From a virus (taxonomy: Duplodnaviria; Caudoviricetes), in the IMG/VR virus record IMGVR_UViG_3300006863_000002, positions 1 to 55,594 of that record: a stretch of 55,594 nt of DNA; one strand, written 5' to 3'. This document shows, in pieces, positions 6,480 to 22,270 of this stretch. Position 1 is the stretch's first letter; every line of letters starts with the position of its first letter. The position numbers and the translations under genes are program-made. A model generated the notes under the pieces. That model made no database searches and was not told the DNA's origin. It saw nothing but the letters and a program-made list of their open reading frames with translations.

Positions 6480-7976
6480 GTGAAACCAACCCCAGAACAG
6501 GCCGCCATCATCGCAGCCGCAACGCAGCCCCAAAGCCTCATGGTCAACGCCCTCGCAGGCACCGGCAAGACCACAACCCTCACCATGCTGGCCAAGGCCC
6601 TTCCGCCTGAACCGGCGCTCGCTCTCGCGTTCAACAAAAAGATCAAAGAGGAACTCGAGAAGCGTTTTCCCAAAAACTTCACAGTGATGACCATGAACGG
6701 TCTCGGCCATCGCGCTTGGTCGTTCACGATTAACAAGAAGAAAATGCTGATCGACACAAACAAAATCGGGAGATTGACGAGCGCGGCGTTACAGGCGTTC
6801 CCCGACTCCCGCCCGCAATGGGGCTCGATCAAAACGATGGTCGCCATGGCGATGCAGCGCGGACTTGTGCCGTCGCATTTCCAGCACGCGAAGTCACTTT
6901 TGCCTGACGCCCCGGCGACGTGGGAGCAAATCGACTATGAACTCGACAGCCAGCTTTCCGCGAACGAACGCAAACTTGCGCGGCACATCTTGATCGAGTC
7001 GATTGAGGAAGGGCTCAAGGGGTGCATCTCGTTTGACGACCAGATTTATCTGCCGATCGTGTTTTCGGGGGCGTTCCCGCGTTTCCCGCTCGTGCTTGTG
7101 GACGAAGCGCAAGACCTTTCGCCGCTTAACCATGAGATGCTTCGCAAATGCGCGGCAGGCAAACTTATCGTCGTGGGCGATCCGCGCCAAGCTATCTACG
7201 CTTTTCGCGGGGCAGATCATAACAGCATGACCAACCTCAAAGCCCTCAAAAAAGAATGGATCGAACTTCCGCTTAACACGACCTTCCGCTGCCCGCAGGC
7301 TATTGTCGAACGGCAGCACGCTCATGCCCCGCAATACCGCGCAGCCGAAAGCAACCCAGAAGGATCAATCAACATCTTCCCGGCAGGCGAAGAGTGGACA
7401 TGGCAGAAAGTCGAAGCACTTTCGACAGGCGAGATCGCCATTCTCTGCCGCAACAACGCGCCGCTTTTAAGCATGGCGTTCAAATTGCTGCGTCAAGGAG
7501 TCGGCGTCAACATGATGGGGAGAGACATTGGACGGGGGCTTTCGTCGCTTTGCCGCAAATTGTCTCCAGACGACAAACTCGCCATCGAACCGTTCTCGCA
7601 TAAACTCGCGGAATGGTTTGAGACGGAACGGACGAAAGCGGAGGTGAATGAGGACGCAAGCAAGATCGACTCAGTGACGGACAAGTTTGAGTGCATCATG
7701 GCAGTCATCACGCATCGTGAACCAAAAACGGTTAGGGTGCTGATGAATGAACTCGAAAACCTTTTCGCCAAGGACTCCGGCATCGTAACCCTTGCAACCG
7801 GCCATAAAGCGAAGGGGCTCGAATGGGACACCGTGCTGCATCTCGATCCGTGGCGCATCCCGTCCAAATGGGCGAAAAAGGATGACGAGATCAGGCAGGA
7901 GAACAACCTAAAATACGTGCTCGAAACGCGAACAAAGCACACACTCATCCTCGCAAACCTAAAGGATTTTTCGTGA
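6480..7976 (+). CDS. UvrD/Rep-family SF1 helicase
   Basis: ALAGTGKT Walker A, VDEAQD, GDPRQAIYAFRGA, TFRCP, HKAKGLEW. Confidence 0.93.
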   Translation: MKPTPEQAAIIAAATQPQSLMVNALAGTGKTTTLTMLAKALPPEPALALAFNKKIKEELEKRFPKNFTVMTMNGLGHRAWSFTINKKKMLIDTNKIGRLTSAALQAFPDSRPQWGSIKTMVAMAMQRGLVPSHFQHAKSLLPDAPATWEQIDYELDSQLSANERKLARHILIESIEEGLKGCISFDDQIYLPIVFSGAFPRFPLVLVDEAQDLSPLNHEMLRKCAAGKLIVVGDPRQAIYAFRGADHNSMTNLKALKKEWIELPLNTTFRCPQAIVERQHAHAPQYRAAESNPEGSINIFPAGEEWTWQKVEALSTGEIAILCRNNAPLLSMAFKLLRQGVGVNMMGRDIGRGLSSLCRKLSPDDKLAIEPFSHKLAEWFETERTKAEVNEDASKIDSVTDKFECIMAVITHREPKTVRVLMNELENLFAKDSGIVTLATGHKAKGLEWDTVLHLDPWRIPSKWAKKDDEIRQENNLKYVLETRTKHTLILANLKDFS

Positions 7977-8323
7977 TGGCAAAACACTTCCTTGCTCCCG
8001 AACGTCCTCGCATATCAGGACTTCCGGCGTTCGCGCCGGAAAGCAACCCCGGAGGCTTGTCGATCATTCCGGGGCTTTACTGCAGCCCTTCGAGCGATAC
8101 CACGATTGAGGTCTCCGGGTTTTTTTCGTCCGGCCCCAACCGATCGACCCGAAAGGTCATCACCATCCACGCCTCTGACTTCGCAGCCTTTTGGACGCGC
8201 TGGTTGGCTGACCCGGAAGGCGTGGCCGAAAAGGAATTTGGCTGGGTGCCGCTTGCGGCCACTCCCACAAAATCACCCGTCGCCACCACGCTTGACCTTG
8301 ACGAACTTCTCGGAGACTTTTGA
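7976..8323 (+). CDS. Hypothetical protein
   Basis: Coupled to the helicase; ends LDLDELLGDF. Confidence 0.7.
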   Translation: MAKHFLAPERPRISGLPAFAPESNPGGLSIIPGLYCSPSSDTTIEVSGFFSSGPNRSTRKVITIHASDFAAFWTRWLADPEGVAEKEFGWVPLAATPTKSPVATTLDLDELLGDF

Positions 8324-8324
8324 C

Positions 8325-8567
8325 ATGACTCGATTTGCACCTATCGCCCTTTGCTTCTGCGTCGGCCTGTGCGATGGCTACACCACGTTTTATGGACCGC
8401 AAGGGCAACTGGCTGGATCGGCAAATTCCATCGCAGGCTATACGCAATACTACGGCCCCCAAGGCCAACTCGTCGGATCGTCAAACAGCATCGGGAATTA
8501 CACCACCTATTATAATTCCGAAGGCGGTTTGGCAGGTTCCTCAAACGGCATCGGAGGAGACGAATGA
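8325..8567 (+). CDS. Putative exported protein with three 20-aa repeats
   Basis: Hydrophobic N-terminus, then GYTxxYGPQGQLxGSxNSI-type unit three times; GGAG RBS. Confidence 0.7.
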   Translation: MTRFAPIALCFCVGLCDGYTTFYGPQGQLAGSANSIAGYTQYYGPQGQLVGSSNSIGNYTTYYNSEGGLAGSSNGIGGDE

Positions 8568-8776
8568 CTGACGACCTTATCAAAGCTCTGCAAAAAGAAT
8601 TACGCGAAGCAGACGCCCGCATCGCTGAACTTGAAAATCTCCTCAAACCTTTTGCTCGCTTAAACGCAAATTGGTTTGGCGATAAAATGCCACTCCAACC
8701 CAAGCAAATCCTGTTCGAACCTCTGCCGGTCCTCTACGCTTCAAAATACTTTTCGGAGCAAAAACATGAAGATTGA
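8564..8776 (+). CDS. Ead/Ea22-like coiled-coil module protein
   Basis: MTDDLI...RIAELENLLKPFA. Confidence 0.65.
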   Translation: MTDDLIKALQKELREADARIAELENLLKPFARLNANWFGDKMPLQPKQILFEPLPVLYASKYFSEQKHED

Positions 8777-9149
8777 AAAGGTCTGCCGATACGTGCCGAT
8801 TGTGCAAGGAGTCAAAAGCAACGGCGCGCAAGCGGGCAGCACGATGCGGCAAATGCTTCTTTCCATCCCGCGAGTGCGCTTTCTTGAAGGAGGCGACAAT
8901 GACTTTTACGACAAATTCAAATCACCCGACGAGGACCCTGCAATCGAGAGCCCGTCCTACACGACGGCATGGTGCAACGCGGTCAAAACGCTGCCTATCA
9001 CCGACCGGGAACTTATCGTGGAGCGCATGATTAACGACGGATCGACGCAACAACAGGTCGCAGATCATCTTGGTATTCTGCGCGGGTCTGTGGCAAACTT
9101 AATTAACCGCGTTCGCGTAAAACGCGCTTACCAGTCTCTCAAAAAATAA
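8766..9149 (+). CDS. HTH protein (sigma region 4 / LuxR-like C-terminus)
   Basis: ITDRELIVERMINDGSTQQQVADHLGILRGSVANLINR. Confidence 0.7.
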   Translation: MKIEKVCRYVPIVQGVKSNGAQAGSTMRQMLLSIPRVRFLEGGDNDFYDKFKSPDEDPAIESPSYTTAWCNAVKTLPITDRELIVERMINDGSTQQQVADHLGILRGSVANLINRVRVKRAYQSLKK

Positions 9150-9159
9150 CAGGTGCCTC

Positions 9160-9516
9160 ATGGATCACACCAACACCTATCCCGACCTCGTGAATGTCGA
9201 GGACTGGCTCAATGCTTCCGGTTATACTGGCGAAGCTGGAGCGTGTCATCAGGCGATGAGTTTAATTCGCAAGCAGGAGAAGCGCATCGCGGAGTTGGAA
9301 GCAGCGCTGGACAATGTTCTTACCGGCGGAAACCACCTTGCGTTACTTATAGGTTCTGACCACCCGTTGCATACGGCTTCGCATGAAGAAGCGATGGCTC
9401 ATTATGGCGCTGGCGACCAATACGAAATTTGGTGCTGCTGGCGCACGATGATGAATGCAGGGCCAGTTCTCGCCGCCCGCGCCGCTTATCTGGGAGATAA
9501 GAATGATAGTATCTAA
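9160..9516 (+). CDS. Ead/Ea22-like module protein
   Basis: RIAELEAAL...AARAAYLGDK. Confidence 0.7.
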   Translation: MDHTNTYPDLVNVEDWLNASGYTGEAGACHQAMSLIRKQEKRIAELEAALDNVLTGGNHLALLIGSDHPLHTASHEEAMAHYGAGDQYEIWCCWRTMMNAGPVLAARAAYLGDKNDSI

Positions 9517-9883
9517 AGACGAGTTGAAGTGGACGGTGAACTACCAAGCCGCCCGTATTGCGGAGTTGTCCGAAGCAATCGGCCTTTTGACAACGCTGAA
9601 ACCTGACATGGAAATTGACGCTAATAACCCAGTTAGCATGGCGACACAAATTGTGGCGCATGTAGACGCCCGCTTCAAAGAGTTAAAAGCAGCGCTTCGT
9701 CCGTTCGCAGAACACATTGCTGAAGCAGAATGGGAACAATACAACGACAACACGCGGGTTGCTGTGCGTCTTGCCGACCTTCGCGCTGCCCGCGCCGCCC
9801 TGCAAAATAAAGAAGCTGACTACGTTTGGGATGGCGATAAATGGGTATATGCGCCGTGGAATAAGGGGGAGGAAAATGGATAA
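9503..9883 (+). CDS. Ead/Ea22-like module protein
   Basis: RIAELSE...LKAALRPFA...DLRAARAAL. Confidence 0.7.
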   Translation: MIVSKDELKWTVNYQAARIAELSEAIGLLTTLKPDMEIDANNPVSMATQIVAHVDARFKELKAALRPFAEHIAEAEWEQYNDNTRVAVRLADLRAARAALQNKEADYVWDGDKWVYAPWNKGEENG

Positions 9884-10049
9884 CGAGCAATATTTAGACT
9901 TGATGGCGTCTGTAGCCTTACAAGGTCTTTTAGCTGGCCCTGAAACGTCCGGTCTTGGTTGGGATAATATTGCCGAGTGCGCTTACTATATGGCTGACAA
10001 AATGTGGGAAGAACGCGAGAAACGCCGTGCCGCTTTGGAGAAGAAATAA
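9876..10049 (+). CDS. Small phage protein
   Basis: ALQGLLA...AYYMADKM motif; GGAGG RBS. Confidence 0.7.
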   Translation: MDNEQYLDLMASVALQGLLAGPETSGLGWDNIAECAYYMADKMWEEREKRRAALEKK

Positions 10050-10198
10050 TGCTCTACATAATGTCGTTTTTGTTTGCCGTAGCTGGTGCCATAGATGGTC
10101 ATTATAGAGGAGTTGATGCGATTTCAACTAACGCCGACTTCATCATTGGCGCTATTTTCTATTCAACTGCTTGCATCGTGGAGGAATTAGAGAAATGA
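10049..10198 (+). CDS. Small membrane protein
   Basis: TAATG coupling; two hydrophobic segments. Confidence 0.5.
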   Translation: MLYIMSFLFAVAGAIDGHYRGVDAISTNADFIIGAIFYSTACIVEELEK

Positions 10199-10500
10199 CT
10201 GACGACCTAATCGCACGGCTGCGCAACTACACTGGCGACTATACTGGCGACTATGTTGCGGGCTTACGCCTAGAAGAAGCCGCCGACGCATTAGAAGCGA
10301 GAGGAAAACGGATTGACGAACTGGAAAGTCGGCTAATCGACAAAGAAGCCCAAATCGCTGAACTTGAAGCGGTGCTGAAACCGTTTGCTAAACACGCGGT
10401 ATGGGTAGCGGATCATAGAAATGATGATGAGGCTTGGGAGTTAAAAGTCCGCGTTCGCGACCTCCGCGCCGCCCGCGCCGTTTTAGGAGAGAAGGAATGA
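10195..10500 (+). CDS. Ead/Ea22-like module protein
   Basis: MTDDLIARLR...EAADALE...IAELEAVLKPFA...DLRAARAVLGEKE. Confidence 0.7.
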   Translation: MTDDLIARLRNYTGDYTGDYVAGLRLEEAADALEARGKRIDELESRLIDKEAQIAELEAVLKPFAKHAVWVADHRNDDEAWELKVRVRDLRAARAVLGEKE

Positions 10501-10802
10501 ATGACGATTTAATCGCACGGCTGCGCAAATACAGCAAAAGACTGTTGCCATGCACACATGAAGCCGCCGACGCATTAAAGGCGCAGGCGCGACGGATTGC
10601 GGAGTTAGAAGCGCGTCTCAATTACATTGAAAACTATATTGAAGGACGCATACGCGGACATATCGCCATCGCAGATGAAGCTGGAACAAGCGCATCAGGA
10701 AAGAAACAGCGTGTTCGGGCGTCAGAGGCATCAGAGATATTAGGAATTATCCGCAAGGAAAATGCCTTGGCTAAGGGAGGTAAAAATGTCGCTATTTCCT
10801 GA
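10497..10802 (+). CDS. Ead/Ea22-like module protein
   Basis: MNDDLIARLR...EAADALK...RIAELEARL. Confidence 0.7.
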   Translation: MNDDLIARLRKYSKRLLPCTHEAADALKAQARRIAELEARLNYIENYIEGRIRGHIAIADEAGTSASGKKQRVRASEASEILGIIRKENALAKGGKNVAIS

Positions 10803-10932
10803 ATATGTCTCACCAATGTTTGCCACCCTAAAAGAGACAAGCCTGCAAAGCGTAAAGATTGCAAAAGAAAATGAGAATTTACGCGCCGCATTGCGCAGAC
10901 GCCGTCACCCGAATGGCGACAGCCGTCATTGA
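10786..10932 (+). pseudogene. Short ORF probably truncated by the WYL insertion
   Basis: GGGAGG RBS; MSLFPEY...ENENLRAALR followed by a short unrelated tail. Confidence 0.4.
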
Positions 10933-10956
10933 GCCTTTCTTTACCCTAACTGGAAA

Positions 10957-10981
10957 AACCAATCAACTTTTTTGATTGGTT
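10957..10981. promoter_or_regulatory. Putative WYL-repressor operator (perfect 10-5-10 inverted repeat)
   Basis: AACCAATCAA-CTTTT-TTGATTGGTT, 33 bp upstream of the WYL ATG. Confidence 0.7.
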
Positions 10982-11014
10982 GCCGCAAAACACATAAAAA
11001 AGTAGGATAGAGAC

Positions 11015-11938
11015 ATGGCCGACGAGACAGTAGAATCACTCAAGTGGAGCGTTAGGCAACGCCTTGAGTTCATTGACTTTCGACTGTTTTGGGAGGGCCG
11101 AGTGAGCCGCCCGGACATCGCGAAGGTCTTCGGGATTTCGGTCCAGCAGGCGTCGGGCGACGTGCAGCTCTATCAGCAGCTTGCCCCGGGCAACATGGAT
11201 TATGACGTCGCGCTGAAACGCTACATACGGCTTCCGTCGTTCGAACCGGTCTTCATAATCAACAGCGCCGATCGGCAACTGCTCAGAATGGTCGCGCTCA
11301 AGAATGGTTGGATGAGCAAGGATGAGACGTGGTTCGACGGCCTGCCGCCGTACGAGGTCGTGTCGCTGCCGAGACGCACGACCGATCCGTTGATTTTGCT
11401 CGCCGTGCTGGACGCGATCCGCCTCAAACAGGAGATCGAGGTCGAGTATCAGTCGATGACCGGGACGCCGCATGGCGTAAGAAAGATCGCTCCACACGCC
11501 CTCTCACACAGTGCAGGCCGCTGGTACATCCGAGCATGGTCTCGCGACCACAACGACTTCCGCGACTATCAGCTAAGCCGCATCAAAAGAATTCTGAGTT
11601 CAAACGAGGTTAATATCGACCTGTCGTTGGACTACGAGTGGAATCACTTGATAGATCTTGTCATAGCGCCAAATCCTGCACTAAGTCCCGCAAAGCAGGA
11701 AGCCGTTGCAGCCGAATATAACATGATAGACAACGAACTAATCATGCCAATTCGGCTAAGCTTAGCATTTTATCTTATCAACGAGCACAATCTGGACGTG
11801 GAACCGGGCAAACTTGAACCGGAGAAGCAGCAAATTGTTCTGACGAACAAGGAGCAGGTCAAACAAGCCAAAGATACTACGAGAGAGATGGCGCGACAGG
11901 CCCTTGCGCGCGCGCAACGCTCGAACAGCCAGCCATGA
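11015..11938 (+). CDS. WYL-domain transcriptional regulator, CapW/BrxR-like (wHTH-WYL-WCX)
   Basis: RQRLEFIDFRLFWEGRVSRPDIAKVFGISVQQAS wHTH; YQSM...IAPHAL...RWYIRAW...FRDYQLSRI WYL; LVIAPNPALS...EYNM WCX. Confidence 0.9.
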   Translation: MADETVESLKWSVRQRLEFIDFRLFWEGRVSRPDIAKVFGISVQQASGDVQLYQQLAPGNMDYDVALKRYIRLPSFEPVFIINSADRQLLRMVALKNGWMSKDETWFDGLPPYEVVSLPRRTTDPLILLAVLDAIRLKQEIEVEYQSMTGTPHGVRKIAPHALSHSAGRWYIRAWSRDHNDFRDYQLSRIKRILSSNEVNIDLSLDYEWNHLIDLVIAPNPALSPAKQEAVAAEYNMIDNELIMPIRLSLAFYLINEHNLDVEPGKLEPEKQQIVLTNKEQVKQAKDTTREMARQALARAQRSNSQP

Positions 11939-12054
11939 CGATCTCGTCTCTGGTCTTGTTCGGTAGCAGAGCGCGGGAAGATAACGACTTACGCAACTGT
12001 CAAAGATTACTTGACGGTTCCCGCGCCGCCCGCTCCGCTTTGGAGAAGGAATGA
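11935..12054 (+). pseudogene. Chimeric remnant: nucleotidyltransferase N-terminus fused to a phage module tail
   Basis: ATGA-coupled 39-aa ORF MTISSLVLFGSRAREDNDLRNCQRLLDGSRAARSALEKE; LFGSRAR is the Pol-beta/MNT GS motif. Confidence 0.6.
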
Positions 12055-12207
12055 TTATCGTGGCGCATGTGTGGTGCCGTTGGGGGCTAACGGCCATTAA
12101 GCAATCTCGTTGCACGAGAGATTGTTCAATGAATTGACCTACTGCACATCGTAACTCGACCCTTGCGGGCCACGACCTCCGCGCCGCTTTGCAAAAAGGA
12201 GAGTGAA

Positions 12208-12387
12208 ATGTCATGGGTTCTAATCATCTGGTTCGCCGGTGCAAGCAGCGCCGTCACAACGCACGAGTTTCTTTCTCAAGAAGCCTGCGAAAATGCGGGA
12301 AAAACTGTGAGCGCAAAAGCGGGTCTAGGATATAAGATCGACTACGCCTGTGTTCCAAAGGAGTTGTTCCATGGCCTTCGACCCTAA
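12208..12387 (+). CDS. Small phage protein (WVLII...F...ACE..G...CVPK)
   Basis: AGGAG RBS; recurrent small phage protein pattern. Confidence 0.65.
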   Translation: MSWVLIIWFAGASSAVTTHEFLSQEACENAGKTVSAKAGLGYKIDYACVPKELFHGLRP

Positions 12388-12913
12388 AGAATGGCGAGAA
12401 GCTAATCGAGAAAAGCAAAGACTGTATTCCGCGCGGTATCGTCTCCGCAAAAAGGGGTGCGATCTTCCGCCGGAAATTCAAGCAGAACTTGAGGAACTTA
12501 AGGCAAAAAAGAAGGCTGAGAGTTTGGAGCGTCTGCGTGAAGCAAAGCGCCGCTGGAACCGTGAACATAAAGAAGAGCGAGCCGCCCGTCGTAGGGAGAA
12601 ATACAACAGTGATCCAGAATGGCGCGCACATAAACTTGCGATTGCGAAAGCTAATCGTGACAAACACAGAGTCGTTCTTACTGAAGAACAAAAAGCAAAG
12701 CGACTTCAGCAAAAACGCGAAGCACAAGTCAAAGCAACTCGAGCGTCAGCTGCAAAGGCCGCACAGCGTCGTGCGGAAATGGGGCCACCCCCAGACGCGA
12801 AGCGTCCTGCACCCAAGCCCAATGTTTTAACGGACGCCCAAAAGGCAGCGCCGAAGTGGAAACTCAAAAAGCCCGGAAGGCTGATCGCGCTTTGCGGCTG
12901 GAATGGATGGTAG
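12371..12913 (+). CDS. Highly basic helical protein
   Basis: AGGAG RBS; K/R/E-rich, repeated W/Y-R-E-x-N-R-E-type units. Confidence 0.7.
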   Translation: MAFDPKEWREANREKQRLYSARYRLRKKGCDLPPEIQAELEELKAKKKAESLERLREAKRRWNREHKEERAARRREKYNSDPEWRAHKLAIAKANRDKHRVVLTEEQKAKRLQQKREAQVKATRASAAKAAQRRAEMGPPPDAKRPAPKPNVLTDAQKAAPKWKLKKPGRLIALCGWNGW

Positions 12914-12996
12914 CGCGGCACAACCATAAGGTTAGGACCCTCGGCTATTGCGTATCGTGTGGCCCTAACTTTTTCGCCCAGCGAGCGACTTTTTCG

Positions 12997-13025
12997 TTGC
13001 AATGGGTCAAAGGTGATGGCATTGT
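12997..13025 (+). promoter_or_regulatory. Putative sigma70-type promoter of the replication operon
   Basis: TTGCAA-17 nt-CATTGT in the intergenic gap. Confidence 0.35.
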
Positions 13026-13085
13026 TTTTAGGCAAGGGGGCGAATGCCCTTTAATTGGCGCAACGCGCCCTCTAAGGAACCGATC

Positions 13086-13571
13086 ATGTCAAAACGAGCT
13101 TTGAAGCTGCCGCACAACGTCACAGTCCACGTCGATCAGCCCTATGCTGAAGGTCATAAGCTGACCGCCCTTGAGGCCGAAAAGCTGAACCACGTTCTTG
13201 CGGACAATATTCGCACTTCGATCATTGCCAAGCTGAAGCGTCTCGCGGACGAAGGCACCATCGACTCTGAGGCTGCGTCGGCTGAGTTCCAGGCTTTTGC
13301 GGATGCTTACGAATTTTCTTCGCGCACTCCGAAAGCGTCTGCCGATCCGATTGCGAAAGAGGCGACGAAGATTGCCAAGGAGCAGGTTTTCGCTGCTATC
13401 CGCCGCAAGGGCGGAAATCCCTCGGACTATTCCGCAGAGCAGATCGCGGAGTATGTCGGCAAGGTGCTGCAGCATAAGCCGGAAATCCGTGAGGAAGCTG
13501 CTCGCCGCATCGACTCGTCCCGTAAGATGGCTGGCGATTTGCTGTCCGATCTTTTCGACGAGGCTGCCTAA
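13086..13571 (+). CDS. Hypothetical helical protein, possibly abundant DNA-binding
   Basis: AAGGA RBS; strong codon bias; ends DLLSDLFDEAA. Confidence 0.75.
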   Translation: MSKRALKLPHNVTVHVDQPYAEGHKLTALEAEKLNHVLADNIRTSIIAKLKRLADEGTIDSEAASAEFQAFADAYEFSSRTPKASADPIAKEATKIAKEQVFAAIRRKGGNPSDYSAEQIAEYVGKVLQHKPEIREEAARRIDSSRKMAGDLLSDLFDEAA

Positions 13572-13580
13572 TGCCATTCG

Positions 13581-13721
13581 GGCATCCCAGATGATACAAA
13601 CTCTGGGATGCCTGTCAGGAAAGCGGGGTTTTCGTTTCCTCCCTTCCCCGCTGTCCGTCAGCCAGACGATGGACCTCTGAAACTTCTGGCGAGCGGGGGG
13701 TCTGCCCCCGCTTTCTTTTTG
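13581..13721 (+). terminator. Multi-hairpin element ending in an intrinsic terminator (possible attenuator)
   Basis: Four successive stems; last is AGCGGGGG/CCCCCGCT plus TTCTTTTT. Confidence 0.6.
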
Positions 13722-13738
13722 CAAAGGCTGTCGCCGCG

Positions 13739-14032
13739 ATGAGTAAAGAAGCAGAAATCCTCTATGAAGCCTACCATTCGGAGTTTGGCATCGAGGTTGA
13801 GCTGCTTGGCAATTACCAAGTTTCTTTGCAGCGCCTTTACGCTGCGCGCAGAAAAGACCCTGATCTTGATATTCTACAAATCTCCCGATCCCCGACCTCC
13901 CCGACTCATATTTGGATATTGAAAACCGACAAACCCTCTCCGCAACCAAGCAGCACGGCTGCACCCTTGAAGGAAAACCCAAGAGGCGAAGGCCCGCTTT
14001 ACAGCCTAGCCGACTTATTAGGAGACGACTAG
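13739..14032 (+). CDS. Hypothetical protein
   Basis: ORF; ends SLADLLGDD. Confidence 0.7.
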   Translation: MSKEAEILYEAYHSEFGIEVELLGNYQVSLQRLYAARRKDPDLDILQISRSPTSPTHIWILKTDKPSPQPSSTAAPLKENPRGEGPLYSLADLLGDD

Positions 14033-14033
14033 A

Positions 14034-14258
14034 ATGGCCGCGCGCCTCGATGACGAAACGACAAAGGTGCATCTCCACCTTTATTCAAAAGACCTTGAAA
14101 AAATTGATCAGTATTTCTGCAGAGCAGGGCTTCGCACGGTCGGAAGATCAAAAGCGATAAGATTGATCGTTCACGCATACGTTCAGCATATGGAGCGGAA
14201 AGCTAATGCAAAACCAGTCCCCTTCGACCAATCCATCACAGACCTCATCGGAGAGTGA
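14034..14258 (+). CDS. Ribbon-helix-helix-like DNA-binding protein
   Basis: TKVHLHLYSKDLEKIDQYF...GRSKAIRLIV. Confidence 0.6.
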   Translation: MAARLDDETTKVHLHLYSKDLEKIDQYFCRAGLRTVGRSKAIRLIVHAYVQHMERKANAKPVPFDQSITDLIGE

Positions 14259-14487
14259 GACGCACGGCGATATTCTTGAAGAAGCGTCTCCCGCGAGTCT
14301 TGATGAATTAATAAACCGCTTTCCGCAGGTTTCAGACGCGGAGGCTGACCGGATTATTGATTATTTGAGGGCGCAACGGGAAAAGTTCGCGCAGCAAGAA
14401 GCGGCCCCGAAAGTCAAAAAAGCCCCGCGTAAAAAAGGCCCGATCATTTCCGCAGATGAACTTCTTTCCGATATTCTAGGTGACTGA
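14206..14487 (+). CDS. Hypothetical protein (start uncertain)
   Basis: IIDYLRAQREKF; ends ADELLSDILGD. Confidence 0.7.
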   Translation: MQNQSPSTNPSQTSSESETHGDILEEASPASLDELINRFPQVSDAEADRIIDYLRAQREKFAQQEAAPKVKKAPRKKGPIISADELLSDILGD

Positions 14488-14686
14488 TATGACGAAGGAC
14501 GAACTTGAGCAACTCGTGCAGGACATTCGGCAACAGGCGTCAACGTGGCTTGGAGATGAAGCAAGTGAAAAGATTGAGCGGTTAATCGCACATACCATGT
14601 TTCTTCGAGGGCACCACGACAATCTCCAGCAAATGCTGCTTAACGGTTATCGCATGGTCCAAGTAGGTTCTGATCCACGCAAATAG
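14480..14686 (+). CDS. Hypothetical protein
   Basis: Operon packing. Confidence 0.6.
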   Translation: MTDMTKDELEQLVQDIRQQASTWLGDEASEKIERLIAHTMFLRGHHDNLQQMLLNGYRMVQVGSDPRK

Positions 14687-14699
14687 ACAGGGACTCCCC

Positions 14700-15644
14700 A
14701 TGTCAGATCAAGTCAACAATTCCCTTTCACTTACATCCCCGCGTTTTCAATTTGCGTGGGACTCGACCTCCATCGGAGCGTTCAAGACGTGTCCGCGCTA
14801 TTACCAACTCAGCATTTTGGAAGGATGGCAACCGAGAGAAATCTCCGTCCATCTTACATTCGGACTTCATTTTCACTCCGCGCTTGAGCGCTATGACCAT
14901 CTGCGGTTTGGCGGGATGGGATATGACGAGGCGCTGCGGGAAGTCGTGCGATATGTGTTGACAATCACTTGGGACGAGCGAAAAAATCGCCCTTGGATTT
15001 CAGATGACCCAAACAAAAACCGCATGACGCTTTTGCGGAGCGTGGTCTGGTATTTAGATCAGTTCAAAGATGATCCGATCGAAACGGTGCGGCTTGCGAA
15101 TGGCAAACCCGCTGTCGAACTTTCGTTCCGGTTTGACTCAGGATATTCGAGCAGCAAGGGCGAAAGCATTTTGTTGTGCGGGCATCTCGATCGCCTCGCC
15201 ACGCTCAACGACAAGGCGTTTGTGCTGGACCGCAAAACCACAAAGTCCACAATCAACCAGTCGTTTTTCGATAAGTTTACGCCTGATAATCAGATGTCGC
15301 TTTACGCGATTGCAGGTAAGATCGTTTACAACGTGCAGATCGAAGGGATCATTGTTGATGGCGCGCAGATCGCGCAGACCTTCACGCGCTTTTTGAGAGG
15401 CGTCGTGCCGAGGACTGAAAGTGGGCTCGAAGAATGGTATTACGATCTTGGGCAGTATATCGCAATGGCGGAATTGTTTGCGGCGCAAAACTACTGGCCG
15501 ATGAATGATAAGTCTTGCGGCATGTATGGCGGCTGTCCTTTCCGCAAAATCTGTGGCCTTCCGCCGACCGTTCGCCACGAATGGCTGCGCGCCGACTTCA
15601 CAAAGCGCATCTGGGACCCGCTCAAAGTTCGTGGTGACATATGA
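14700..15644 (+). CDS. PD-(D/E)XK nuclease, Cas4/RecB-like exonuclease
   Basis: CPRYY...FGLHFHSALE...GHLDRL...VLDRKTT...Q..LY...C....GCPFRKIC (four-Cys Fe-S pattern). Confidence 0.88.
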   Translation: MSDQVNNSLSLTSPRFQFAWDSTSIGAFKTCPRYYQLSILEGWQPREISVHLTFGLHFHSALERYDHLRFGGMGYDEALREVVRYVLTITWDERKNRPWISDDPNKNRMTLLRSVVWYLDQFKDDPIETVRLANGKPAVELSFRFDSGYSSSKGESILLCGHLDRLATLNDKAFVLDRKTTKSTINQSFFDKFTPDNQMSLYAIAGKIVYNVQIEGIIVDGAQIAQTFTRFLRGVVPRTESGLEEWYYDLGQYIAMAELFAAQNYWPMNDKSCGMYGGCPFRKICGLPPTVRHEWLRADFTKRIWDPLKVRGDI

Positions 15645-17254: not shown

Positions 17255-17315
17255 CAATAACGGGGGAGGCAGGAGCCTTTTGCCTCCCCCACCTTGCAAC
17301 TGACAGGAATTGAAA

Positions 17316-18752
17316 ATGGAAATCTCGCTTAATGCTATTTGGATCGACCGTGCAAGCCGTCAGCGCAAGGAGATCGTGATTGACGATTTGCTCGAAAGCA
17401 TTCCGAGACGCGGAGTTCTTGTGCCGATTATCGTCACGAGCGAGCAAGGCCCGAATGGCCAGCCTTTCAAACTAATCGCAGGCGAACGGCGTTACACGGC
17501 GTCGCGGCAGTTAAAACTTGAATCAATTCCCGCGCGCCTGCTGGACGATCTTTCGCCAACCGAGCAGCGGGTGGTTGAACTCGAAGAAAATCTTCGCCGG
17601 AAGGATTTGGGCTGGCAGGACCAGTGTTTGGCGATGGCGAGCGTGCATGAAATTTTGTCGCAAGCTGGCGGCCCGGACTGGGGCTATAACAATACGGCGG
17701 AAAATCTTGGGTTCAGCCCTTCGTGGGTGAATAGGTGCTGCCGGATCGCCAAGGAACTCCATCGAGATAACGTGCGGCACATGGAGTCTGCGACGCGGGC
17801 TTACAATTTTCTAACTCGTGAGGATGAACGGGTCGCGTCGGACGCCATAAGCAACCTATTGCATACGGCCACGGCGGCGGCTTCTGAGGCGATTGAAAGT
17901 GCGTCGGGTGGTAACCCCCTAGACGACCTTTTGAACGCATCCACGGCCCCGGAAAAGGGCGGCACGGGGGCATCCACAACCGCATTTCAATCCGCACGCC
18001 AAGCACCCCTCATAACACCCGCCGACCAGTCTATTCTCCATCAATCTTTTCTTGACTGGGCTCCAACTTACACCGGCGAACCGTTCAACCTTATCCACTG
18101 CGACTTTCCTTACGGCGTGAATGTTTTCGGTGGAGCGTGGTCTGGGAAACTTACAACTCCGGGGTATAACGACTCCCCAGACATTTATACCGACCTGATT
18201 AAATGTCTGTGTGAAAATCTCGATCGCGTGATGGCGCACTCCGGGCATTTGGTTTTCTGGCTTTCCGGCGACATCAAAATTCAGGCCCGGACGCTCCAGA
18301 TGTTTGCGGAACTTGCGCCGACGCTGGCGTTCAACAACTTCCCGCTCGTCTGGCTGAAAAGCGACAACGTGGGAATTGTGCCGGACCCGAAACGCGAACC
18401 TAGACGCATTTACGAAACCGCGCTGATTGCAAGTCGTGAGGATCGTTTGCTGGTTCGCCCCGTGGCCAACGCAATCGCAGCGCAAACGAACAAGGAGCAT
18501 CACCCCCACACCAAACCTGAACCAGTGCTAAAGCACTTTCTGCAGATGTTTGTGGATAGCAACACAAGATTTCTCGATCCGACATGCGGTGGTGGGTCAT
18601 CGCTGCGGGCCGCAGAAGCCCTCGGGGCAGAGTATGTGCTCGGCCTTGAGATTGACGATGAATACGTAACAAACGCGAGACGAGCCCTCACTCAGTCGCG
18701 TGTGATGCGGAAAGCATCGGCGTTAAAAAAGGAGCAAGCGAATGACGGATGA
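17316..18752 (+). CDS. ParB-N domain / N6-N4 DNA methyltransferase fusion
   Basis: GVLVPIIV...LIAGERRY...ELEENLRRKDL (ParB); IHCDFPYG, HPHTKP, FLDPTCGGGS, GLEID (beta-class MTase). Confidence 0.88.
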   Translation: MEISLNAIWIDRASRQRKEIVIDDLLESIPRRGVLVPIIVTSEQGPNGQPFKLIAGERRYTASRQLKLESIPARLLDDLSPTEQRVVELEENLRRKDLGWQDQCLAMASVHEILSQAGGPDWGYNNTAENLGFSPSWVNRCCRIAKELHRDNVRHMESATRAYNFLTREDERVASDAISNLLHTATAAASEAIESASGGNPLDDLLNASTAPEKGGTGASTTAFQSARQAPLITPADQSILHQSFLDWAPTYTGEPFNLIHCDFPYGVNVFGGAWSGKLTTPGYNDSPDIYTDLIKCLCENLDRVMAHSGHLVFWLSGDIKIQARTLQMFAELAPTLAFNNFPLVWLKSDNVGIVPDPKREPRRIYETALIASREDRLLVRPVANAIAAQTNKEHHPHTKPEPVLKHFLQMFVDSNTRFLDPTCGGGSSLRAAEALGAEYVLGLEIDDEYVTNARRALTQSRVMRKASALKKEQANDG

Positions 18753-19398: not shown

Positions 19399-20454
19399 AT
19401 GCACAACGCAGCGCCAGCATTCGCCCACGCAAGCGGACCACGAGACGCCAAAATCGCAATCGTGGGAGAAGCGTGGGGCGAGCAGGAAGCACTCATCGGG
19501 AAGCCGTTTCAAGGTTACAGCGGGCAAGAACTTACCCGCATGTTGCAAGAAGCTGGGTTGTCTCGTCGTGATTGCTTTTTGACAAACGTGCTGGCGCTGC
19601 GCCCACCAAACAATGATCTGCAAGCCTTGTGCGTCAAGAAAGCAGAATGCGGAGAGGATTATCCCCATCCGCATCTTGGCAAGGTCGGGCAATACCTGGC
19701 CCCTCAATACCTGTCAGAATTGGAGCGTTTGCGAAATGAATTGGAAATCGTGCGCCCTAATCTCACTATCGCTCTGGGTGCTACAGCTTGCTGGGCTTTG
19801 CTTGGCACTAACGGCATTGGAAGTTTACGCGGGACAGTGGCGACAGGAACTCTTGCTGGCGGCAAAGTCCTACCGACCTACCACCCTTCGGCAGTCTTAC
19901 GTAATTGGGCGTGGCGTCCAATCGCTCTCGCGGATTTGATTAAAGCGAAACGTGAAAGCGCATACCCAGAGATCAAACGACCGCGCCGCTACATTCTGGT
20001 GAACCCTACGATTGCGGAATGCCATGACTGGATCGCCAAGCATATACGCGCCGAAACCGCTTGTGACATCGAAACGAAATACGGCATGATCGAGATGGTG
20101 GGGTTCAGCGCGGACGCGGAAAACGCAATGGTCGTTCCGTTCTGGGACAAAGCGAAAGGTGGAAATTATTGGCCATCCCCTCGCATAGAGCGTGACGCAC
20201 GAAATGTTGTGCGTTCGATTCTGGAAAACCCCAACATCGTGAAAATATTCCAGAACGGGCTTTATGACTTGCAATATCTAATGAAAGAAGGTTATCGTCC
20301 TCGTTCGTGCCTTCAAGATACCATGCTCTATCACCATGCCCTTTATCCAGAAATGCAAAAGGGGCTGGGCTTTTTAGGCAGCATCTATACTTCCGAGCCT
20401 GCGTGGAAAACCATGCGCGGGAAAAAGATCACGGAGATGAAGAAGGATGACTGA
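19399..20454 (+). CDS. Family-4 uracil-DNA glycosylase fused to the N-terminal part of a PolA 3'-5' exonuclease
   Basis: IVGEAWG..E...GKPFQGYSG, TYHPSAVLR (UDG); CDIET (ExoI), QNGLYD (ExoII), DTML. Confidence 0.88.
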   Translation: MHNAAPAFAHASGPRDAKIAIVGEAWGEQEALIGKPFQGYSGQELTRMLQEAGLSRRDCFLTNVLALRPPNNDLQALCVKKAECGEDYPHPHLGKVGQYLAPQYLSELERLRNELEIVRPNLTIALGATACWALLGTNGIGSLRGTVATGTLAGGKVLPTYHPSAVLRNWAWRPIALADLIKAKRESAYPEIKRPRRYILVNPTIAECHDWIAKHIRAETACDIETKYGMIEMVGFSADAENAMVVPFWDKAKGGNYWPSPRIERDARNVVRSILENPNIVKIFQNGLYDLQYLMKEGYRPRSCLQDTMLYHHALYPEMQKGLGFLGSIYTSEPAWKTMRGKKITEMKKDD

Positions 20455-20676: not shown

Positions 20677-20789
20677 TGCTTTCACCCCTCATCCTCTCGT
20701 TTGTGCCTTTCACATATTACATCGTGACTGGTTCCGAAAAAGCCCTCGCCGTTTGGGTGCTGTTTGTCGCTTGCGGAATGGTGATTTAA
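20676..20789 (+). CDS. Small hydrophobic peptide (37 aa)
   Basis: TAATG-coupled at both ends. Confidence 0.45.
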   Translation: MLSPLILSFVPFTYYIVTGSEKALAVWVLFVACGMVI

Positions 20790-22270
20790 TGCCGATCATT
20801 GACACCAGCACTCTTCAAGAAGGCATTGTGCTCGCGGAGAACGAGCAAATCTATAACGGCCTTGATTGCTGCATCACACATGAAGTTTTAGACTCCATCC
20901 GCGCTATAGGCCCTGCGCCAAAAATCTACGATTTCGCCCGTGCGCTCCAGGCTCCGGTTCTGGACATGATGCAGAGGGGGTTTCGCATTGATACTTATGA
21001 GCGCCAGAAAGGTATTGAGACGCTTAATGCGGAGATCGACCGGCTTACTACTCTGCTTAATCGTCTTAGCTACGCTGTTTGGGACAAACCCCTTAAAGCA
21101 AACTCTCCTAAAATGCTTCAAGAGTTTTTCTTTGGAGTGATGCGTATTCCAGAAATCTGGACTTCAAAAAAGGGAGAGCGAAAACTTTCGATGGACCGCG
21201 AGGCCCTTGAAAAACTCGACAACTATTTTCACGCCAGACCATTTGTTTCGACCATCTTGGCTATTCGAGATGCTGTCAAACAACTTTCAGTTTTAAACAC
21301 CGAAGTCGATTCTGACGGACGCATGAGGACATCTTACAATGTCGCAGGAACAGAAACCGGACGCTTTTCTTCCAGCACTAATGCCTTCGGCACCGGAACA
21401 AACTTACAAAACATCACGTCAAGTTTACGCAAAATGTTTGTGGCTGACCCTGGCTACAAAATTTGCGGCATCGACCTCGAACAAGCAGAGTCTAGAGAAG
21501 TTGGATGGCTTTCGGGCACCATTTGTGGTGACTGGTCTTATCTGGATGCCTGCTATAGTGGCGACCTTCACACTCTTGTCGCAAGGACTGCTTGGCCCGA
21601 ATTGGAATGGACAGACGATCCAAAGCGCGATCGTGCAATCGCAGACACGCCCTTTTACCGTCACCTTACCTACAGAGACATGGCGAAAAAACTCGGCCAC
21701 GGAAGCAATTATCGCGGATTACCTCCAACCATGGCCCGTCATGCCAAGCTCCCAGTCGAAGTCGCAGAGTCTTTTCAGCGAAGATATTTCGAAAGATTTG
21801 CTGGAATACCAAAATGGCATAGATGGGTCGCACAACAGCTTCAAACGGCAAACAGAGTCATCACGCCTTTCGGACGCGAGCGGACGTTCTTCGGAAGAGC
21901 GAACGATGATACGACGCTACGGGAAGCGATTGCGTTTTCACCGCAGAGCGCGACGGCGGATAGATTGAATTTAGTGTTGTGGAGAGTTTGGAAATACATG
22001 CCGCAGGTTCAGTTGATCGCGCAAGTTCACGACGCCCTTTACTTTCAATATCCCGAACACCTCGACGAAGTTGCTGTTATTGACGAAGCCCTTTCACATT
22101 TTCACCTCGCGTTTGAGTGCAACGGCCATGAACTCGTGGTGCCGGGAGAAGCCAAGGTTGGCTGGAATTGGGGAAACTTCGACCCCGCCGCTAACCCTGA
22201 CGGTCTGGCGAAATGGAAAAACAAAAAGGACGAGCGCAAACGCACTCCTCTCCTTTCGCAAAAACTATAA
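20789..22270 (+). CDS. polA: Family A DNA polymerase (ExoIII plus polymerase domain)
   Basis: YNGLDC (ExoIII), TETGRFSS, NLQNI, DLEQAESR (A), RDMAKKLGHGSNY (B), QVHDAL (C). Confidence 0.93.
   Translation: MPIIDTSTLQEGIVLAENEQIYNGLDCCITHEVLDSIRAIGPAPKIYDFARALQAPVLDMMQRGFRIDTYERQKGIETLNAEIDRLTTLLNRLSYAVWDKPLKANSPKMLQEFFFGVMRIPEIWTSKKGERKLSMDREALEKLDNYFHARPFVSTILAIRDAVKQLSVLNTEVDSDGRMRTSYNVAGTETGRFSSSTNAFGTGTNLQNITSSLRKMFVADPGYKICGIDLEQAESREVGWLSGTICGDWSYLDACYSGDLHTLVARTAWPELEWTDDPKRDRAIADTPFYRHLTYRDMAKKLGHGSNYRGLPPTMARHAKLPVEVAESFQRRYFERFAGIPKWHRWVAQQLQTANRVITPFGRERTFFGRANDDTTLREAIAFSPQSATADRLNLVLWRVWKYMPQVQLIAQVHDALYFQYPEHLDEVAVIDEALSHFHLAFECNGHELVVPGEAKVGWNWGNFDPAANPDGLAKWKNKKDERKRTPLLSQKL

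Follow-up and report, generated by a model that had tools for sequence, protein, structure and literature searches.

A 39-residue fusion frame in a phage genome as the likely scar of a recent host-to-phage capture of a capW–halB-like operon fragment

The window analysed here is a whole IMG/VR virus record of the Caudoviricetes (IMGVR_UViG_3300006863_000002; 55,594 bp, completeness rating 100%). On its plus strand, an intact 307-residue gene of the CapW/BrxR repressor family, with a WYL domain (positions 11015–11938), is followed by a small open reading frame (ORF) at 11935–12054, whose ATG (11935–11937) overlaps the TGA of the repressor gene (11936–11938) as ATGA. This coupled frame had been proposed from the letters alone (hereafter the original prediction), and the ORF listing contains it, at 39 residues and with the quoted peptide. 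It is composed of the first 18 codons of a halB-like nucleotidyltransferase gene (11935–11988, plus strand) and of the last 21 codons and stop of a small phage gene (11990–12054, plus strand), read in that gene's own frame, the TGA of which overlaps a further ATG at 12051. On the other side of the repressor gene, ORF 10786–10932 joins the head of the interrupted phage gene (10786–10882, plus strand; 32 codons plus 1 nt, with a GGGAGG Shine-Dalgarno sequence before the start) to donor upstream DNA that is read through for 16 codons and a stop at 10930–10932 (10883–10932, plus strand). Between head and tail lies a 1107-bp block of bacterial DNA (10883–11989, plus strand), consisting of an upstream region, the capW-type WYL gene and the 18 halB-like codons plus 1 nt. 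We interpret ORF 11935–12054 as the scar of a recent host-to-phage capture of a capW–halB-like operon fragment, with a probability of about 0.9; the comparisons that follow establish the capture, where it begins and ends, what both genes are and that the stub is without the catalytic residues, and we found no evidence contradicting the capture itself.

The beginning of the 39-residue frame carries the hG[GS] motif of Pol-beta/MNT nucleotidyltransferases as LFGS at residues 8–11, which include the invariant G10 and S11 of the family; homology stops at residue 18, and D22 and D24 of the catalytic DxD (S-D-x-D-L-L) are missing. A Pfam search with the frame returned no family, PADLOC gave only a faint match of residues 2–18 to small nucleotidyltransferase models, and tblastn matched the N-terminus of the gene directly downstream of the WYL gene in many of 80 bacterial loci. 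A genome from the genus of Methylocystis sp. JAN1 (G206) carries a WYL homologue with 80% identity, and in blastn, window positions 10936–11988 align with this genome in a single block (76.5% over 1059 columns), which spans 79 nt before the WYL start to codon 18 of the next gene. That gene encodes a 229-residue nucleotidyltransferase, 16 of whose first 18 residues are the same in the phage frame. Because the block runs without interruption from upstream of the WYL gene into nucleotidyltransferase codon 18, the comparison identifies the N-terminal match as homology rather than chance, and the original prediction of a nucleotidyltransferase start that ends before its DxD is borne out. No closer genomic relative appeared in 401 genomes of the family, which gave four weak matches, and among 78 genomes of the genus only G206 reached 80% protein identity.

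The borders of the block were read from environmental data. Twenty public runs share words with positions 10700–12300, several soil runs holding part of this stretch and no RNA run being listed as a holder. Contigs of four soil-metagenome runs from four studies (X5–X8) were compared with positions 10000–12800, of which they cover 10883–11989 only, at identities of at least 99% and with 0–2 differences from the phage per record (603 nt with one, 337 nt with none and 299 nt with two); for the remaining parts, such as 10000–10845, this is absence of cover only. To the left of 10883, the X5 and X6 contigs share one and the same non-phage sequence, and to the right of 11989, contigs of three runs (X5, X6 and X7) go on with sequence unlike the phage. 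Behind 11989, two X5 contigs and X6 read C-R-S-D-I-D-L-L-L-I in the enzyme frame, which is the catalytic motif that the phage lacks; X7 shows only the first nine letters of this continuation. This indicates that a donor-type allele with an intact second gene circulates in soil. Since the soil contigs match the window at 10883–11989 only and diverge at both ends, these positions delimit the captured block, replacing a left border at 10936 that had been taken from the 76% relative G206, where a global alignment gave a hint of weak similarity further left. The proposal that about 1.1 kb (10895–11995) had been taken from a bacterial WYL-to-nucleotidyltransferase operon is thus met to within 6–12 nt at the junctions. 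ORF 10786–10932 is indeed broken, although the break does not follow LRAALR, as had been suggested, but lies 12 nt further left, between L32 and R33 (10882|10883), with residues RAALRRRRHPNGDSRH translated from donor DNA.

Phage block and soil allele differ at four of 1107 nt (99.6% identity), once upstream of the WYL gene and three times within coding sequence, the latter all non-synonymous (V6A, I81M and T277K, read from coordinates). Run X5 also contains a second allele of the block, about 7–11% different, at 11152–11353 and 11715–11939, and more than one strain with the operon is present in that soil.

The two joints explain the form of both flanking frames. The block measures exactly 369 codons, the head (10786–10882) and tail (11990–12054) of the phage gene lie in one frame, and with 10882 joined directly to 11990, 53 codons can be read without interruption up to the native stop (TGA 12052–12054). 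A 1107-bp operon fragment entered this accessory gene of about 53 codons (10786–12054), in a hypervariable early region, by illegitimate recombination and brought along a promoter/operator region, a complete CapW-type repressor gene and 18 codons of the HalB-like gene. The length of the fragment is divisible by three and the enzyme ATG is in the frame of the phage gene, so that the insertion yielded two chimeric ORFs, one of phage head and donor upstream DNA (10786–10932) and one of enzyme start and phage tail (11935–12054). The hexamer TTACGC straddles both joints (10879–10884 and 11989–11994), and the donor has only GC in common with it on the left and T on the right, an overlap of at most 1–2 nt per joint, which argues for little or no homology at the joints; the hexamer is possibly a target duplication of 3–6 nt, or it may be microhomology. 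No uninterrupted copy of the split gene was seen, and the gene head has no relative in viral contigs. A 29-nt likeness between 11543–11571, in the WYL gene, and 11974–12002, which spans the right joint (76%, repeat family D11), was set aside as probably due to chance because it is no better than the other two-copy repeat families listed.

A metagenome assembler could in principle have joined bacterial DNA into a phage contig, given that the record is a metagenome assembly and that the runs holding the whole stretch are possibly its own source. Such an artefact would have needed two joints within one small gene with the frame preserved; the exact WYL protein of the phage is present on eight contigs (the longest of 55,718 nt), four freshwater runs hold every sampled word of 10700–12300, both joints included, and the soil runs with the donor allele show no cover on the phage flanks. 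We regard this explanation as hardly credible. The reconstruction of the capture has its limits: the four freshwater runs are possibly the source of the record and hence not independent, the soil contigs are short (83–635 nt) and give 30 letters per loose end, leaving the donor organism and its neighbouring genes unseen, and the T at 11989 is assignable to either side, the rejoined frame closing at codon 41 if it is phage DNA.

The stub is itself an ordinary scar. It is not an enzyme, because it has lost the catalytic DxD along with over 90% of the protein, and it is probably inert, except that it possibly hands ribosomes on through the ATGA overlaps at its two ends. That the fusion works as a small protein in its own right, perhaps by disturbing HalB tetramers, would be consistent with an ORF that is open, translationally coupled at both ends and retains the first beta-strand of HalB and the G-S motif. 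Yet the enzyme start runs into the phage tail because the enzyme ATG shares the frame of the phage gene, a one-in-three chance that needs no selection, 18 residues are unlikely to fold, and nothing points to selection on the ORF at 99.6% donor identity, which makes a function of the fusion very unlikely.

The block sits in an accessory slot (9151–12191, plus strand) that is hypervariable within the phage group, as judged from synteny with related phages on both sides. Six related phage loci (L098–L103) were found through a conserved 187-residue protein. Five of them (L098–L101 and L103) are syntenic with parts of 7002–9151 and also with 12191–15000, where L102 joins them from 12540 only; between these flanks, the five loci that reach the slot differ completely, and the WYL gene is found in none of the six. 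Because the related phages agree on the flanks, differ between them and are without the WYL gene, the slot is, by sequence comparison, one in which cassettes are swapped. In the phage collection, megablast with 9000–14000 matched nothing but 141 nt elsewhere, and blastn with 10890–12060 had no match at all.

Within the slot, repeat families D1 and D3 place the same DNA at 9779–9815, 10025–10050, 10453–10498, 12010–12055 and 12179–12204, and in the interval 9779–12204 several small genes end in these copies. Small slot genes in four related phages, for which ORFs were listed, end in motifs of a similar kind. The last part of the 39-residue frame, which had been ascribed to a phage RAAR.ALEKE module, is one of these recurrent gene ends. 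Just downstream, at 12051–12207, a 28-codon ORF stops at 12135–12137, and the same frame continues into the module copy at 12179–12204 and ends at a TGA (12204–12206) just 5' of the ATG at 12208; the slot seems to contain a second small gene that was broken.

The capture of host genes by phages, as morons or other accessory-slot cargo, is a recognised concept, and the event described here is of a known kind. As with such cargo, the block brings in a foreign gene together with its promoter and occupies a variable slot flanked by conserved modules, and, as at mosaic gene boundaries, short conserved gene-end and ribosome-site modules recur at the cassette borders of this phage. Unlike in usual phage gene capture, the two joints are known here to the base, and environmental data still contain a donor allele with 99.6% identity; unusual, too, is a cargo that consists of a defence repressor alone. 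The locus therefore offers a capture caught nearly in the act, which is rare material on how phages acquire cargo.

We compared 80 bacterial genome loci with WYL relatives and 80 metagenome loci. At 55 of the 80 genome loci the WYL gene is directly followed by a nucleotidyltransferase of about 227 residues that starts M-x-I-x-A-x-L-L-F-G-S-x-A-R and continues S-D-T-D-L-L. WYL identity is at least 41% at 59 genome loci, among which these 55 are found; two further loci end with their contigs and are not assessable (L041, L044), and the nucleotidyltransferase is missing at L034 and L055, which gives 55 of 57 assessable loci. None of the 21 genome loci at 37–42% WYL identity has it, large unrelated genes standing there instead. 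The enzyme gene likewise follows at 62 of the 80 metagenome loci: five of the 67 higher-ranked ones (L104–L170) are without a match, three of these ending within about 115 nt of the WYL match, and it occurs at none of the 13 lower-ranked ones (L171–L183; 37–41% identity). The two genes overlap as ATGA in at least 15 bacterial pairs. The check put forward with the original prediction, that close WYL homologues should be followed by a nucleotidyltransferase, thus came out in its favour. The pair is rare, with no member of the HalB family at E ≤1e-25 in 400 other genomes of a class-wide sample. The HalB-like gene is partial or split at L007 (residues 82–227) and at L027 and L028 (residues 17–102 each); it may decay in bacteria too while the WYL gene stays whole.

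Conserved neighbours of the bacterial pair lie on its opposite side, divergent from the WYL gene. They include, in G206, the phospholipase of a cyclic oligonucleotide-based antiphage signalling system (CBASS) with a cGAS-like cyclase (233.5 bits, cut-off 200), and elsewhere proteins of a 6A-MBL system (509.8 bits, cut-off 320, and 410.4 bits, cut-off 220), a CBASS oligonucleotide cyclase with an AAA ATPase (403 bits, cut-off 200) and other, unnamed genes. Clustering of all larger ORFs at the 55 loci showed no conserved neighbour downstream of the nucleotidyltransferase. The effectors (CBASS, 6A-MBL and others) adjoin the WYL gene on the side away from the enzyme, and they were not captured either.

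A profile of 22 of the downstream proteins matched the solved HalB structures (9dbh, 9dbj and 9dbi) at 1.6e-59 to 1.1e-56, its next matches being minimal nucleotidyltransferases at 1e-4 or worse, and the G206 protein alone matched solved HalB at 5.4e-34 over residues 2–225 of 229. On the HalB equivalog model of NCBIfam (NF051895, cut-off 190), the protein of G206 scored 190.2 bits and those of L006 and L002 scored 204.8 and 183.9 bits. The donor gene is by these comparisons a HalB homologue whose membership of the equivalog is borderline. Y47, Y93 and Y226 are invariant in the 22 HalB-like sequences. According to the accessible portions of PMC13434031, HalB primes its poly-dA on tyrosine, and the HalA channel is held shut by short oligo-dA; HalB also figures there as the negative regulator of Hailong. 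The original prediction had the regulator kept and the effector dropped. The repressor gene was indeed kept, but 'effector' is the wrong label for the lost gene, because HalB, its homologue, negatively regulates Hailong in that account.

The suggested 'Hailong-like' donor stands for the enzyme, which aligns end to end with solved HalB (1.6e-59 for the profile) and has the same motifs, and falls for the system: HalA (NF051894) scored above its cut-off in none of nine genomes with the pair, two matches of about 22 bits being no better than those in control genomes, and no conserved membrane-protein neighbour was present among the 55 loci. Whereas Hailong combines HalB with a DNA-gated channel, the partner of the donor enzyme is a repressor predicted to sense single-stranded DNA (ssDNA), and the phage itself holds just 18 codons of the HalB-like gene. 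The alternative donor named in the same prediction, an MNT-HEPN system, was rejected. The N-terminal hFGS...DxD motif of Pol-beta enzymes, the source of that comparison, is common to both; however, donor-family proteins have 227 residues with a HalB C-terminal domain, score 16.7–28.2 bits on the MntA model NF047752 (cut-off 60), and have no HEPN protein and no conserved partner but WYL. The donor combines a CapW regulator with a HalB-like second gene in one module and is neither a Hailong nor an MNT-HEPN system.

The repressor gene (11015–11938) was assigned from Pfam, profile and alignment evidence. Its product has a Pfam WYL match of 1.3e-15, and precomputed annotation of an identical protein gives PF26109, PF13280 and PF26107 in the wHTH-WYL-WCX architecture; the closest protein, from Methylocystis echinoides, is 80% identical. 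The family profile matched solved CapW (9c5g) at 4.8e-77, as well as 7tb5, 7tb6 and the BrxR structures 7t8k and 7qfz, the CapW and BrxR structures being matched over 5–297, which is nearly the full length. The phage protein is full length against 30 homologues and retains 84 of 84 invariant columns, and is thus identified, by homology, as a CapW/BrxR-type repressor. This conservation, together with a ratio of non-synonymous to synonymous substitution (dN/dS) of 0.087 relative to G206, was considered as a sign of selection in the phage and rejected; because the capture is recent, the ratio speaks of bacterial history only.

A CapW-type repressor keeps a defence promoter shut until ssDNA binds its WYL domain, and RWHVR is the ssDNA-contact motif of that domain, as described in the available sections of PMC11662680. 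The phage protein has RWYIR in its place (residues 169–173; R169, W170, Y171 and R173 invariant in 31 sequences) and is predicted to bind ssDNA. About 55 nt ahead of the WYL start, at 10957–10981, there is a perfect palindrome with 10-nt arms, a 5-nt spacer and the core TCAA-N5-TTGA; a TTGATT hexamer resembling a −35 element overlaps it, and the 55.6-kb phage has no other copy. We examined 37 distinct upstream regions of the family, drawn from the 38 of 55 loci with a script-placed WYL start plus G206 and the phage. Of these, 26 have TCAA-N5-T[ATG]GA at −56 to −40, where shuffles would give 0.19, and the regions share a TCAAG-centred element about 55 nt before the WYL start, of which the phage has the strict form. 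Position and symmetry make the palindrome a likely CapW operator. A second conserved palindrome, CCATA-N3-TATGG within GTCCATAAGATATGGG, stands about 85 nt before the WYL start in many of the loci L002–L057, in the stretch that separates the WYL gene from the divergent defence operon, and is absent from G206 and the phage.

The phage protein thus resembles known CapW/BrxR repressors in its three-domain architecture, its full-length match to their structures and the palindrome in its own promoter, and its bacterial relatives sit divergently beside CBASS and 6A-MBL operons as those repressors do. It differs in that the phage copy stands alone among small phage genes, without an adjacent defence operon, and in that the repressor of this bacterial clade is co-transcribed with a HalB-like gene. 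The WYL protein as a single query found no relative in viral contigs. An alignment of the family found 42 viral loci at 33–58% identity over the matched segment, the two top ones (L222, 50%, and L224, 58%) as partial matches; a HalB-like gene follows the WYL homologue at none of the 42, and a large same-strand ORF follows it at most of the 25 viral loci inspected.

With regard to what the captured gene might do, an autoregulated, ssDNA-responsive CapW expressed from the phage would occupy the TCAA-N5-TTGA operator of the host's cognate locus, and the added repressor would damp the induction of the neighbouring defence operon and of halB. Such an anti-defence use is the functional reading that we favour, and we hold it tentatively. 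A use of some kind is suggested by the content of the fragment, which is one whole gene with its control region and little else, and by a carrier that has been assembled repeatedly. Induction of such systems matters in prophage induction (PMC11662680) and in priming after failed infection (10.1101/2025.11.13.688357), as far as the accessible text of these reports goes. Against any function in the phage stands the youth of the capture, after which an intact gene is what one would expect by default. Several considerations weigh against counter-defence in particular: lytic lambda was still held off in E. coli by CapW mutants with constitutive repression, according to the available part of PMC9122588, and added repression may for that reason not help a lytic phage; ssDNA should release the phage CapW too, because the ligand-binding residues are retained; and the host of the phage is not known.

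About as likely is a reading in which the block is a young neutral passenger, a recent accident of illegitimate recombination that brings the phage no benefit and has yet to be purged. The block is still 99.6% identical to the soil allele, too young for decay or selection to have become visible, the insertion destroys just a small gene in a freely varying slot, and the phage has no second copy of the operator. Yet a random fragment would seldom match a single complete gene and its control region so closely, leaving an excess of just 132 nt and 51 nt, and eight contigs of the carrier have been assembled, though perhaps in one campaign. An unlikely third course is that CapW serves as the phage's own switch, sensing replication ssDNA and timing the phage genes downstream of 10957–10981. 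The promoter and operator arrived with the gene, capW has the orientation of the flanking early genes, and ATGA overlaps tie it to the following ORFs; against this, the genome has one operator copy only, upstream phage transcription would read through regardless, and related phages manage without capW.

Since the cargo comprises a defence regulator and no effector, repressor theft becomes a testable idea of counter-defence. The stub has also led to a conserved pair of a predicted ssDNA-sensing repressor (CapW) and a homologue of a poly-dA synthase (HalB-like), present at more than 100 bacterial genome and metagenome loci beside CBASS, 6A-MBL and other systems. We did not find this pairing in the accessible portions of PMC9122588, PMC9122601, PMC11662680 and PMC13373217; it may be in print, the original Hailong paper and supplements lying outside the search. 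The natural cues of WYL repressors remain unknown according to the part of 10.1101/2025.11.13.688357 available to us, and an enzyme of the same operon that is predicted to make ssDNA would provide a direct handle on them. A doubtful extension is that the two proteins form a self-contained ssDNA signalling pair, in which the poly-dA of the enzyme would be the ligand of the CapW WYL domain or a reservoir of it, and of which the phage would have acquired the receptor half with the operator but not the signal generator. Through positive feedback, an initial ssDNA cue would lock the neighbouring operon (CBASS, 6A-MBL or other) in the on state; in another version, the switch would be reset by phage nucleases that attack the poly-dA. 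The captured receptor half and operator would hold the host switch off.

The wider gene content of the window was surveyed with a PHROGs scan. The plus strand encodes a helicase, an exonuclease, a Sak4-like annealing protein, a ParB-methyltransferase, DNA polymerase A in two ORFs and a primase, and the minus strand the portal, terminase, major head, tail fibre and endolysin proteins. No integrase or repressor family was found among the 30 larger ORFs scanned, which is not proof of a lytic phage. The two polymerase A ORFs (19399–20454 and 20753–22270), about 300 nt apart, match successive parts of one PHROG profile (positions 476–798 and 809–1232), and the arrangement could reflect a split gene, an intervening element or a frameshift. 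ORF 17310–18752 joins a ParB-like N-terminal domain with a DNA methyltransferase domain.

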